From a virus (taxonomy: Duplodnaviria > Caudoviricetes), in IMG/VR virus record IMGVR_UViG_3300025694_000005, positions 1-59,799 of that record: a stretch of 59,799 nucleotides of DNA. One strand, written 5' to 3'. This document shows positions 303 to 26,557 of the stretch, in pieces. Every line of letters begins with the position of its first letter. Position 1 is the stretch's first letter. The notes under the pieces are model-generated. The model saw nothing but the letters and a program-made list of their open reading frames with translations, searched no databases and was not told the DNA's origin. The translations under genes and the position numbers were made by a program.

Positions 303-680
303 ATGTTAGAGATAATATGTGTTGCCCTAGCGGTTTACTTCGAAGCCCGAGGTGAATCGCTAGAAGGCCAACGTGCCGTAGCTTCTGTGGTGTGGAATCG
401 TCGCAATGACGAGAGATGGCCCAACCATACCTGTGAAGTAGTAGCTCAGAAAGGTCAGTTTGAAAGCTGGCCTCTCATTAAATCTGAATTTCCTAGACTC
501 TATGGAGCGGAATATTTAGACCTCCCACCAAACGAGAGTATGAAAATCGCTCTTGCCCATGCGTCATATACAGCAGAGACGCCAACCACACCAGCATTGT
601 TTTTCGCTACACCCAACCTATTAAACTACAAAGAGCTAGAAATAATAGGAAATCACGTTTTTTATACCACACACGACTAG
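303..680 (+). CDS. cell wall hydrolase, SleB/Hydrolase_2 family
   Basis: YFEARGE, GQRAVASVVWNR, QFES and IGNHVFY motifs. Confidence 0.9.
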   Translation: MLEIICVALAVYFEARGESLEGQRAVASVVWNRRNDERWPNHTCEVVAQKGQFESWPLIKSEFPRLYGAEYLDLPPNESMKIALAHASYTAETPTTPALFFATPNLLNYKELEIIGNHVFYTTHD

Positions 681-846
681 AACAGGTTTTTCCACTCCAG
701 CGGGGCCGGGGCACATCTATCGACTAGAGGAAATCCTTCCTTGGACGTAAAAATCAGTACAAATCTTCCTTAAATTTACAGTAATCTCTTAGTTTTCCAG
801 TAAAAAGGGAGTGTAAATTTAATGAATATAACTCGACCCTTAAACT

Positions 847-893
847 TAAAAGACCGCATAGCCTACTTGGTTGAAGTAGAAACATGCGGTCTT
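847..893 (-). terminator. intrinsic terminator-like hairpin
   Basis: 10-bp stem 850-859/884-893 plus 6-bp inner stem 863-868/874-879, followed by a U-rich tract on the minus strand. Confidence 0.55.
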
Positions 894-1127
894 CTTGTAT
901 ATTGATTTACAAAAATTGCTTACAAATGAAGCATAAGTGTTTACGTAATCTCTCGATAAACTCTTCTAAATATCTTTCGTAGTATTACTCTCCCGCCCCA
1001 GACTGCTTTCGCGCTAGGGGCGGAGGTAATAATCAAACGATATAAGAAGAACCTTCGAGATTACGTTTGGAGATGAAGAAGTTGTTGTATTGGCTTCTGC
1101 GCGGTCTCATCATGCTTCACATAATAT
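848..1127 (-). ncRNA. candidate structured ncRNA (~280 nt), class unknown
   Basis: No credible ORF; promoter at 1134-1162; helices 927-934/1112-1119, 943-952/1057-1066, 962-967/1045-1050, 983-988/1026-1031, 993-999/1017-1023 with GAAA loop; terminator-like hairpin 850-893. Confidence 0.65.
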
Positions 1128-1133
1128 TTAATT

Positions 1134-1162
1134 ATAATAGCAGACAGATAACAAAATGTCAA
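1134..1162 (-). promoter_or_regulatory. sigma70-type promoter
   Basis: TTGACA-N17-TATTAT with an A-tract upstream. Confidence 0.75.
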
Positions 1163-1305
1163 GATCTTTTTTTCTCATCTATAAGGGATTGCTGCACAGC
1201 CTTGAGAAATTCATCAAAGCCTTTTTCGTCCTCCAACATAAGTGCGATTGCTAAATCTTTTTCTTTGCGTGCTTCTTTAATTTTATCAGAAAAAGAAAGC
1301 CCCAC
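1159..1305 (-). CDS. small hypothetical protein (48 aa), not in ORF track
   Basis: GTG start overlaps the MTase TAG; VGLSFSDKIKEARKEKDLAIALMLEDEKGFDEFLKAVQQSLIDEKKRS. Confidence 0.55.
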   Translation of the reverse strand: MGLSFSDKIKEARKEKDLAIALMLEDEKGFDEFLKAVQQSLIDEKKRS

Positions 1306-1318
1306 TACTGCGGGGCCT
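1300..1318. repeat. 19-nt direct repeat copy 1 (hairpin-forming)
   Basis: CCCCACTACTGCGGGGCCT identical to 2556-2574. Confidence 0.9.
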
Positions 1319-1874
1319 CATCGTACGTCTCTCTTGCTAACTCATTCGCTAAGTCACTCTGTTCCTTACTAGCGGGAGGAACGAAGAACACACCTTTCGG
1401 AAGCCTTCCAGTGTCGTCCCAAACATACCAAGCATAGTCAGTCGCATCAGTTCCTCGCCCCGTGAAGGACGGTCGCTTCGACAATACATGCAATGCCGTA
1501 GGAGTATTCTCCTTCCACCACTCATGACGCCCAATACTACCAAGAAAGTTAATTCTTAGTAGCATGAGGCAAGTATTACTATGTGCTAGTGAATGATCGA
1601 TAAACTCCTTAGCGATACTAAAGGGAGGATTTGTAAGAATCAGATCCGTACCTTCATTCCATTCGAAGAAATCTTTATCCTCAGTAATCTCACTATAGGT
1701 GCAGGTTAAACCGCACTCCTCTTCGAGAAAGTACTGAATGCGACCATCTCCTCGACAAGGCTCGTGAGCGTTCTCGAAGAGTGACCAATCTATTTCTAGA
1801 TTCTCATAACACCACGGCGGTGTTGCGTAAAAGTCAGTCGGGTTAAGCCGCAGCCCTGTTTTTTGTCTTGACAT
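1305..1874 (-). CDS. phage DNA amino-methyltransferase (N6A/N4C type)
   Basis: DFYATP, EPCRGDG (SAM motif I) and TNPPF (motif IV). Confidence 0.85.
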   Translation of the reverse strand: MSRQKTGLRLNPTDFYATPPWCYENLEIDWSLFENAHEPCRGDGRIQYFLEEECGLTCTYSEITEDKDFFEWNEGTDLILTNPPFSIAKEFIDHSLAHSNTCLMLLRINFLGSIGRHEWWKENTPTALHVLSKRPSFTGRGTDATDYAWYVWDDTGRLPKGVFFVPPASKEQSDLANELARETYDEAPQ

Positions 1875-2528: not shown

Positions 2529-2555
2529 GAATTATTTTTCTTCAGGTACAAAAAA

Positions 2556-2574
2556 CCCCACTACTGCGGGGCCT
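2556..2574. repeat. 19-nt direct repeat copy 2, terminator-like on the minus strand
   Basis: Identical to 1300-1318; followed by TTTTT on the minus strand. Confidence 0.9.
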
Positions 2575-2671
2575 TTTGGTTCTTGCGAGTATACTTAGTT
2601 TTATCTCGATACACTTTTGGCTTGTTAAACTTCCAAGCGTGTTTCGCCACGGGGTTTATGCGTCCATCCAT
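2561..2671 (-). CDS. small basic protein (36 aa), NPVAK-type phage family, loosely ArfA-like
   Basis: MDGRINPVAKHAWKFNKPKVYRDKTKYTRKNQKAPQ; below the ORF track cutoff. Confidence 0.65.
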   Translation of the reverse strand: MDGRINPVAKHAWKFNKPKVYRDKTKYTRKNQKAPQ

Positions 2672-2823
2672 AACTCTACTCCCCAGCTCCAAGTAAGCCA
2701 TGCGAAGATGAAACCATAGTCATTCGTCATCATGTCCTGGCTATGGTAGAGTGCGAAACTGGGAAGAACATGAAAGAGTCCTTCAGCTCGCCAAGTGTTT
2801 TGCACAGATTGTTGAATTTGCAT
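2656..2823 (-). CDS. small hypothetical protein (55 aa)
   Basis: MQIQQSVQNTWRAEG...WSWGVELWMDA; GGGGAA RBS; directly downstream of a promoter. Confidence 0.65.
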   Translation of the reverse strand: MQIQQSVQNTWRAEGLFHVLPSFALYHSQDMMTNDYGFIFAWLTWSWGVELWMDA

Positions 2824-2845: not shown

Positions 2846-2875
2846 ATTATACGCCCTTGACATCTCCATGTCAAG
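2846..2875 (-). promoter_or_regulatory. sigma70 promoter with an inverted repeat over the -35 box
   Basis: TTGACA-N17-TATAAT; CTTGACAT-ctcc-ATGTCAAG at 2856-2875. Confidence 0.85.
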
Positions 2876-25834: not shown

Positions 25835-26557
25835 ATGGCAATTCCAAAGTGGACTGACGAGCGAACTTCCGCTCTTACCAATTTCGTAGGTTCTGAATCC
25901 CCAGTAACTTACGCAACTGTTGTCGAAGCTGCTGACCAGCTCGAAACATCACCCCGTTCTGTAGCCTCTAAGCTGCGTAAAATGGGTCACGAAGTAGAAT
26001 CTTCTGCTTCTGTAACTACTCGTGCGTTCTCCGATGCACAAGAAACTACTCTGAATAGTTTCGTAACTGATAACTCTGGCCAGTATACTTACGGCCAAAT
26101 CGCTGAAGCCTTTGAAGGTGGCGAGTTTTCTTCCAAGCAAATCCAAGGTAAATTGCTGTCTATGCAATTGACCGAGCACGTCAAACCTACTCCTAAAGTA
26201 GAAAGTGTTCGTACCTTTAGCGATGCTGAAGAAGCAGAGTTTGTTAAGCACGCCTCTAACGGCGCATACCTCGAAGATATCGCAGAGGCTCTTGGCCGAA
26301 CCGTTAATCAAATTCGTGGTAAAGCTTTATCTTTGTTACGTCAAGGCTCTATTGCTTCTATTCCTGCACAAAAGGAAAGCAAGGCTGCGGCTAAAGCTGA
26401 TCCTCTCGAAGGTGTAGATGTAGCTTCTTTGTCTGTCGAAGAAATCGCAGAGCAAATTGGCAAAACTGCCCGAGGTGTCAAGACTATGTTGACTCGTCGT
26501 GGTCTTACTGCCTCTAACTATGATGGTGCAGCAAAAGCAGCTAAAGCTGCGGGCTAA
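25835..26557 (+). CDS. T5 D5-like DNA-binding protein
   Basis: Repeated HTH-like units, RGVKTMLTRRGL...YDGA; synteny. Confidence 0.88.
   Translation: MAIPKWTDERTSALTNFVGSESPVTYATVVEAADQLETSPRSVASKLRKMGHEVESSASVTTRAFSDAQETTLNSFVTDNSGQYTYGQIAEAFEGGEFSSKQIQGKLLSMQLTEHVKPTPKVESVRTFSDAEEAEFVKHASNGAYLEDIAEALGRTVNQIRGKALSLLRQGSIASIPAQKESKAAAKADPLEGVDVASLSVEEIAEQIGKTARGVKTMLTRRGLTASNYDGAAKAAKAAG

Follow-up and report, generated by a model that had tools for sequence, protein, structure and literature searches.

What is encoded on the minus strand between positions 1162 and 848 of the contig whose first lines are given above, where a strong promoter is followed by a stretch of high folding potential with no evident protein gene? 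The contig (IMGVR_UViG_3300025694_000005, 59,799 nucleotides (nt)) is a 59.8-kb viral contig rated 59% complete, which originates from an uncultured marine phage and is called the window here, i.e. the whole stretch of DNA that was analysed. An earlier note on this DNA had suggested a non-coding RNA (ncRNA) with the architecture of a retron msr-msd transcript or of 6S RNA that acts as a phage decoy or regulator. Our analysis indicates that the segment 1162..848 is very probably a real, independent and stand-alone ncRNA gene of the phage, so this part of the earlier inference stands, whereas its retron-linked and 6S-like versions are not upheld. The best explanation overall, which we consider an evenly balanced judgement, is a stand-alone structured phage RNA of ~280 nt with a long imperfect hairpin (the rod) as its specificity module. 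That it is an ncRNA gene and neither a chance fold nor an origin-like field of DNA repeats is concluded from the conserved promoter and terminator, the synteny, the purifying selection and the compensatory changes that are presented in the following.

The promoter (1162..1134) agrees with the sigma-70 consensus in 11 of 12 positions and has the TG extension. Promoters of the form CTTGAC-N16-19-TAWWAT occur 12 times in the window compared with 0.26 expected sites, each of them oriented along its own gene block, and the promoter of the RNA is one of these. The earlier claim that no open reading frame (ORF) follows this promoter proved correct, since the minus strand between 1133 and 850 contains no ORF longer than 43 amino acids (aa) and none that is credible. 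A 26-aa ATG frame (1113..1033) was considered as a gene and rejected: it has no Shine-Dalgarno sequence and its frame is shifted by a 2-nt length difference in the relative L151. The minimum-energy fold of 1130..845 includes all named elements (Table 1) and reaches -93.9 kcal/mol, compared with -57.95 +/- 4.76 kcal/mol for 200 dinucleotide-preserving shuffles (z -7.55), none of which was equal or better. Sequence and fold are also in agreement with the parts that had been recognized before, namely the complementarity of the 5' and 3' regions, the G after the 5' arm, the short stems, the rod with its GC-GAAA-GC cap and the terminator. The hairpin of the latter (894..850) is present in the folds and missing from the list of a simple terminator scan.

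Two viral contigs contain the element at 93% identity. Its invariant neighbour is a cell-wall hydrolase gene (303..680, Pfam Hydrolase_2) that is convergent to the RNA gene, and an alignment of such hydrolases was used as query in the family search, which resulted in 80 viral loci and 45 metagenome loci. In 43 of these 45 metagenome loci a close relative of the hydrolase (at least 49% identity) is encoded; the other two are L186, which has a hydrolase of 28% identity and is without the RNA gene, and L187 with a short partial match. All 37 metagenome loci that have a close hydrolase and at least 370 nt of sequence downstream possess the RNA gene, in full or truncated where the contig stops, and six further close-hydrolase loci end too early for its presence to be judged. 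It was found also in nine loci of viral contigs and in none of the 71 loci with distant hydrolases. Promoters of the L128 and L142 type at distant-hydrolase loci drive a protein gene. Across the related loci the promoter is near-identical and reads (A-rich)TCTTGAC(A/T)TTT...TCTGCTATTATA; a scan of viral contigs with the promoter pattern recovered 18 stretches, i.e. six of the family and 12 unrelated promoters of protein genes. The family set comprises 31 distinct full sequences together with L151 and L165, which lay outside the first search pattern, and a single copy of the RNA is found in a 91%-complete relative. The upstream methyltransferase was rejected as family anchor: one of 35 viral loci (L005) has the RNA, the others mostly carrying different genes there, and because of this low number the RNA is considered syntenic with the hydrolase and not with the methyltransferase.

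This RNA family is found in one clade of uncultured marine phages whose replication genes are most like those of the T5 type. Searches with blastn for type A and type B of the RNA (see below) among 50,697 records of cultured phages gave no match. The comparison with the covariance models of Rfam (15), which had been proposed in the earlier note, returned no 6S, retron or other family: nothing reached the gathering score in the whole window, the segment 600..1400 gave no family match with E-values up to 10 and chance hits only, and in 11 related loci (E-values up to 0.5) just transfer RNAs (tRNAs) of two relatives and chance hits were detected. A 20-mer of the 5' hairpin of type B, searched for exact matches in 185,579 species genomes and for this type only, had six hits, all of them by chance and in coding contexts. 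The literature searched (supplementary files excluded) contains no description of such an RNA. Phage stable RNAs of unknown function are an old kind, and a family of them with a swappable rod appears to be undescribed.

By sequence, the family can be divided into five RNA types, with type A comprising 12 variants, including the window RNA (besides the diverged L151), type B 14, type C three and types D and E one variant each. All types follow a common plan of a 5' hairpin, a small second hairpin, a rod of 90-135 nt and one or more 3' hairpins ending in the terminator. In types A and B the rod begins 64-68 nt past the -10 element, and between the types its sequence differs yet folds as a rod. 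In type B the 5' hairpin (GAUUUUG-GCAA-CAAAGUC) is invariant and the 3' domain conserved, whereas the rods occur in at least six versions that belong to two unrelated sequence groups (B1 and B1' versus B2, B2', B2'' and B3). Direct reading of the sequences reveals that the pairing GAAG/CUUC in the second hairpin (P2) becomes GUAA/UUAC in type B2, and the linker hairpin has a different form, CAUCUGU...ACAGAUG, in most relatives.

The rods are exchanged. The phages L177 with rod B1 and L178 with rod B2' have hydrolases that are 100% identical, and that of L175 (B2'') is 92% identical to both. Similarly, the hydrolases of L160 (B2) and L162 (B1') are 85% identical, and the rods of these two are homologous to those of phages with 59-63% hydrolase identity. 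Since different rods are found at identical hydrolases, the rod type is independent of the neighbouring gene and moves between lineages while the flanks of the RNA stay in place.

Within type A the variability was measured as the share of variable columns per segment among the 12 variants. The 5' 190 nt vary in 4-11% of the columns (5' arm 4.5%, junction 11.1%, rod 4.0%, i.e. 5 of 124) versus 30-46% in the 3' linker, the terminator and the spacer (34.5% in the 3' arm with linker, 46% in the terminator and 29.6% in the spacer that leads to the hydrolase stop). All five variable rod columns are structure-neutral: two are in the tetraloop, one is in an internal loop, one replaces G-U by A-U and one A-U by G-U. 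As the tetraloop variants are GAAA, GUAA, GCAA and once GUUA, it is read as a GNRA loop varying mainly at its free second position. In L151 the apical half of the rod is kept and the basal half consists of another sequence, the two ends of which (CACACC/GGUGUG) pair, the whole still being a rod in the minimum-energy fold. The terminator exists in three versions of the inner stem and loop among the relatives, each of which folds as a hairpin with the outer stem retained.

The earlier note had called for covariation across related phages, and it was found as compensatory changes in the rods of the sister types B1 and B2, in sets that are small and consist of 4-10 mutually related sequences. In rods of the B2 group 93.1% of the cells are paired versus 34-46% with slid partners, and 11 of 40 pairs have changed on both sides, a number that is reached by 2 of 500 shuffles; in the B1 group, where 98.8% of the cells are paired, both partners have changed in 6 of 41 pairs, which none of 500 shuffles equalled. 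Counts of compensatory pairs, given without a shuffle control, are 17 of 40 for the whole type-B RNA and 7 of 85 for type A together with L151. Within each type the apical rod is conserved and the basal stem drifts with compensation. Judged from these alignments, the RNA gene is under purifying selection and its product is structured.

Table 1. Promoter, predicted RNA and predicted parts of the RNA in the window
Feature	Position	Strand	Description
Promoter	1162..1134	minus	-35 TTGACA (1162..1157), 17-nt spacer, TG-extended -10 TATTAT (1139..1134), A-rich stretch upstream
Predicted RNA (~280 nt)	1127..848	minus	start predicted 7 nt past the -10 element, end predicted at the U tract of the terminator
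Closing stem, 5' arm	1124..1110	minus	pairs with 936..920 (folds and duplex test)
Alternative local 5' hairpin	1126..1107	minus	UAUUAUGU-GAAG-CAUGAUG, favoured by the consensus fold
Junction	1108..1070	minus	helix of GAGA (1108..1105) with UCUC (1073..1070), enclosing hairpin P2
Junction motif	1106..1097	minus	GACCGCGCAG
Hairpin P2	1098..1094 with 1081..1077	minus	loop CCAAUACAACAA at 1093..1082
Rod	1066..943	minus	124-nt imperfect hairpin, 48 pairs, GC-GAAA-GC cap, tetraloop GAAA at 1010..1007
Closing stem, 3' arm	936..920	minus	UUAUGCUUCAU, then UU, then GUAA
Small linker hairpin	912..895	minus	minimum-energy folds
Intrinsic terminator	894..848	minus	GC-rich hairpin GAAGACCGCAUG...UAUGCGGUCUU (894..850) and U tract (851..848)

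How far the closing stem belongs to this plan has to be considered separately. In the window it has 15 base pairs, with UGAAGCAU at 1119..1112 complementary to AUGCUUCA at 934..927 (minus strand) and a G at 1111 directly after this 5' arm, and it occurs in the minimum-energy folds of all seven type-A variants that were folded. Three different 3' arms are found, i.e. AUGCUUCA, CUUUACAU and, in L151, GCUUUUGUA, each being complementary to the 5' end in a different register. A general search for duplexes between the 5' and 3' ends with long flanks was uninformative (z -1.8 to +0.8), and a focused duplex test with 1000 shuffles was used. Shuffles as good as the real sequence numbered 29 for the window, 19 for L155 and 3 for L151. 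The commoner L063-type version (368 of 1000) and types B-E (332-874 of 1000) were at chance level. It follows from this test that the closing stem described earlier is supported in the window copy and is not a family trait; it belongs to only some of the type-A RNAs and possibly competes with a local hairpin. The latter is favoured by the consensus fold with eight invariant pairs and occupies the same place as the 5' hairpin of type B. A switch or pseudoknot that involves GACCGC (1106..1101) had also been suggested. The complement of this motif, GCGGUC, does lie in the terminator's 3' arm, but the 12 type-A variants have GACCGC (four), GACCCC (seven) or GACCGA (one) at this site, so that the pairing sequence is retained in a third of them, and the switch is not supported.

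Both the retron and the 6S readings of this locus lean on the closing stem and are weakened because this stem is not general. It is extremely improbable that the RNA is a retron msr-msd RNA that is reverse-transcribed into msDNA, or a decoy of such an RNA that titrates a host retron enzyme. The resemblance lies in the window copy, which has an a1/a2-like terminal inverted-repeat stem, a G (1111) next to its 5' arm, short stems on the 5' side and one long hairpin, and in the hypervariability of the rods, msd regions of retrons being hypervariable too. However, the a1/a2 stem is not conserved across the family and is at chance level in the L063-type and in types B-E. The statement that the window encodes no reverse transcriptase is confirmed by the lack of an RVT domain among its 83 ORFs, the record being 59% complete, and a search of related records found PF00078 in none of five, including the 91%-complete G001 with a type-B RNA (the control search detected this family in 3 of 14 known genomes). 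Moreover, no gene follows the RNA on the same strand, what is conserved in it does not match the needs of a decoy for diverse retrons, and Rad, by which the T5 family is known to counter retrons, is reported to be a protein of 189 aa and not an RNA (10.1101/2023.03.15.532788). Binding of a 6S-like RNA to the host RNA polymerase holoenzyme, which would shift transcription to the phage programme, is highly unlikely as well. The core of the window copy resembles 6S RNA in size and rod shape, its sub-type combining closing stem, asymmetric junction and long helix in a rod-like ~190 nt, and a sigma region-4-like protein is encoded in the window. Against this, no 6S model matched in the Rfam searches of the window and of the 11 related loci, the rod contains small internal loops only and no large central bubble, and the closing stem is not significant in the commoner type-A version and missing in types B-E, which have a local 5' hairpin instead. 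A function at the DNA level, with a cruciform or hairpin as origin, injection-stop or packaging signal or as recombination hotspot, is very unlikely, although the T5 injection stop signal is situated at a comparable convergent junction that is rich in palindromes and terminator-promoter composites, as potential recombination drivers, are repeated in the window. The T5 signal is described as a long non-coding region between plus-strand pre-early and minus-strand early genes that is rich in inverted repeats and palindromes and defined by paired DnaA boxes and many repeats. Unlike this signal, the region 680..1160 contains none of the nine DnaA-box matches of the window, and there are no repeat arrays in the RNA region. 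Promoter and terminator bracket the hairpin at every locus. When the two strands are compared, the transcribed one gives the more stable rod in 25 of 31 sequences, corresponding to 9 of 11 rod types; B1' is the exception, and for B3 a wrong hairpin was picked by the script. The helices contain 110 G-U versus six A-C cells, a count with some circularity, as RNA rules had been used to predict the structures.

Two further alternatives accept an RNA product and assign it a different task. A trans-acting small RNA that depends on a host Hfq-type chaperone, either titrating it or pairing with host or phage messenger RNAs, is rather unlikely. In types A, B, B2 and D the motif ACAACA(A) can be read in loops that are unpaired, and (AAN)n motifs are linked to the distal face of Hfq; the strong terminator with its U tract and the strong early-type promoter would also suit such a molecule. 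But types C and E lack the motif, the 59.8-kb window offers no complementary target of more than 12 nt (chance level, E 0.78), and the conserved and swappable 124-nt rod would be left without explanation. We regard it as improbable that the RNA controls the hydrolase (lysis-type) gene by convergent transcription or antisense pairing, or is an RNase III-processed regulator that times the facing gene. The timing would be set by early read-through from the strong promoter or by the double-stranded rod serving as a site of processing. A precedent is OOP RNA of phage lambda, which acts on cII, and the convergent arrangement is invariant in 37 metagenome and nine viral loci. Furthermore a conserved non-coding block lies between terminator and hydrolase stop, and ~48 imperfect base pairs would be a plausible substrate of RNase III. 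What argues against this control is the strong terminator ~170 nt before the hydrolase stop, because of which no overlap with the hydrolase is predicted. Selection, too, is strongest on the 5' 190 nt and not on the part nearest to the hydrolase, and the swapping of rods at identical hydrolases is unexpected for a device that is tuned to this gene.

The stand-alone structured RNA with the rod as specificity module can be pictured as follows. The host polymerase would make the RNA early from the sigma-70 promoter, and the 5' hairpin together with the terminator would stabilise it. The apical two-thirds of the rod would act as sequence-specific recognition module, which is suggested because the apical rod is conserved within each type and the basal stem drifts with compensation, and the basal stem and the flanks would be scaffold and stabilisers. 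Its likeliest partner may be a host protein or one from a competing element, in which case the RNA could function in takeover or counter-defence as a stable decoy or sponge. As rod types are discrete and exchanged, a variable partner is suggested, and rod swapping would track the variation of this partner. Such a decoy or sponge mechanism with a specificity module is proposed tentatively and we give it less than even credence. More doubtful is the idea that the rod represents an RNA specificity cassette in an arms race, each rod type mimicking or binding a single variant of some component of host immunity, or a determinant of kin recognition or exclusion between co-infecting siblings; immune ligands to be considered would be, for example, the RNA or DNA of reverse-transcriptase-, nuclease- or cyclase-based defence.

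Several points weigh against the specificity-module explanation. No protein, host or defence system is linked to the RNA. Contigs from RNA libraries (four runs, three studies) span the RNA locus, yet they also cover the neighbouring genes and give no strand, ends or level of the predicted transcript and are thus weak evidence for it. For the rod type of the window the case consists of conservation and one half-rod replacement (L151), with few independent compensatory pairs. In addition, the window copy lacks a 9-nt segment (AUCAACCAC) that is found in 11 of the 12 type-A variants, and for rod type B1' the opposite strand gives the more stable fold. Finally, the hypervariability could be explained by recombination at conserved promoter and terminator cassettes in the absence of any selection for diversity.

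If the rod is indeed an arms-race cassette, phages would alter their range of defence evasion or competition by swapping a 120-nt hairpin between conserved RNA flanks, and this would be an RNA counterpart of the swappable receptor-binding domains. Structured phage RNAs beyond tRNAs are few and mostly of unknown function, and the present family offers a comparative handle with its invariant promoter, fixed position, constraint within types and exchangeable hairpin. Exchange of the rod beside an identical neighbouring gene is a pattern that is typical of conflict loci. Should the partner be identified, this would suggest that abundant marine phages have an RNA-based layer of host takeover or counter-defence, and the consensus sigma-70 promoter should permit direct expression in laboratory bacteria.

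With respect to its genomic surroundings, the RNA gene is the far-end member of a block of small genes of the early type, which in some relatives also includes tRNA genes. The window encodes a DNA polymerase A, a DnaB-type helicase, a primase, a ribonucleotide reductase, ThyX, PhoH, MazG and Hsp20, as well as a NifU-like protein and, at 25835..26554, one that has a sigma-70 region-4 domain. Its DNA polymerase is 43% identical, over the full length, to polymerases of other phages, which we take to be T5-like, and the hydrolase matches endolysins of Demerecviridae. On the other side of the hydrolase, and adjoining it, positions 2-298 have a weak GcrA-like match (E 0.0095), and 1305-1874 encodes a protein of 189 aa that contains an NPPF motif and weakly matches the EcoRI methylase. 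These GcrA-like and methylase-like neighbours hint at a methylation-linked regulation and might have some bearing on the host.

Some smaller features of the neighbourhood deserve mention. Upstream of the RNA an ORF of ~47 aa (1159-1305, minus strand) starts with GTG inside the upstream terminator, in its 3' arm, and stops with TGA inside the -35 hexamer of the RNA promoter. Its protein is conserved in 11 of the 12 type-A loci, two of five B1' loci, the type-E locus and two of three type-C loci, is missing in L063 and the remaining type-B loci and has no Pfam match. The non-coding block GGAAGGATTTCCTCTAGTCGATAGATGTGCCCCGGCCCCGC (in RNA orientation) is found at 698-740 between the terminator of the RNA and the hydrolase stop; it is recognisable in all RNA types including D and E in spite of varying surrounding DNA, and may either belong to the hydrolase transcript as a 3' element or extend the RNA. 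At the hydrolase stop itself (~673-676) a palindromic insert of ~28 nt (TGACATTT..AAATGTCA or GGAATTTCATGCTTTAAATTCC) is present or absent among relatives (L144, L147, L150, L156, L157, L170) and metatranscriptome contigs and looks like a miniature mobile palindrome.

Two copies of the terminator hairpin GGCCCCGCAGTAGTGGGG exist in the window, one (1319..1296) ahead of promoter 1162 and the other (~2574..2552) ahead of promoter 2528. The surroundings of the promoters at 1162, 2528 and 2874 (minus strand) are repeated as well; the repeat families are D1 (terminator) and D2/D3 (promoter). Behind the perfect promoter 2874..2846 a 55-aa protein (MQIQQSVQNTW...; 2656-2823, minus strand) is encoded that is conserved in 21 upstream ORFs of relatives; this promoter is therefore assigned to a small protein gene and not to an RNA gene.

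A comparison with known systems may finally be attempted. Sponge and decoy RNAs like CsrB/RsmZ, CrcZ and the adenovirus VA RNA are abundant, stable and structured molecules that bind protein via loops or an imperfect duplex. The RNA described here shares with them the proposed mode of working, but the repeated GGA loops or other defining motifs are absent, as is an Rfam match. Among phage RNAs the stable RNAs of T5 (record AY543070.1), i.e. RNAI, RNAIII, RNAIV, RNA2H and RNAX, which are located in the tRNA region and have no known function, come to mind. They are likewise phage ncRNAs with promoters and have 100-700 nt; in T5 they lie among small early and tRNA genes. In the relatives of the window, tRNA genes precede the RNA by 0.7-1.2 kb, on its own strand, in two of the 11 loci scanned (two genes at 3951-4114 in L066 and three at 3699-3954 in L172, minus strand), and the 59.8-kb window has none. 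In contrast with the single long rod of the present family, RNAIII, RNAIV and RNA2H of T5 exhibit a closing stem with three arms (multibranch), and no swappable module is known from the T5 stable RNAs. As 12 blastn queries against T5 10-60 kb gave a best E-value of 0.012 and no significant similarity to the T5 RNAs, the likeness to these RNAs is, in our assessment, one of kind and place and not of homology. The tRNAs of the T5 family are reported to be counter-defence RNAs (10.1101/2023.03.15.532788, PMC11464382), and the proposed decoy or sponge would fit the position of our RNA gene in the region where phages of this family keep RNA-based and other counter-defence genes.

With regard to the arrangement of the locus a parallel is seen in the PeSL cassettes (promoter-early stem-loop composites) of T4-type phages, which are described as regulatory and recombination linkers flanking protein genes (PMC2839356, PMC4122927). 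Like these cassettes the window repeats a terminator hairpin and a near-identical early promoter, and the adjoining gene content varies among close relatives. A terminator stem-loop followed by a conserved early promoter, in repeated form and with variable inserts, is a property of the flanks and not of the RNA itself, and such PeSL-like composites could supply the recombination sites for the exchange of rods. Unlike in the T4-type cassettes, as far as these are described, the unit behind the promoter here is a conserved structured RNA, in which only the inner rod is swapped between conserved flanks.

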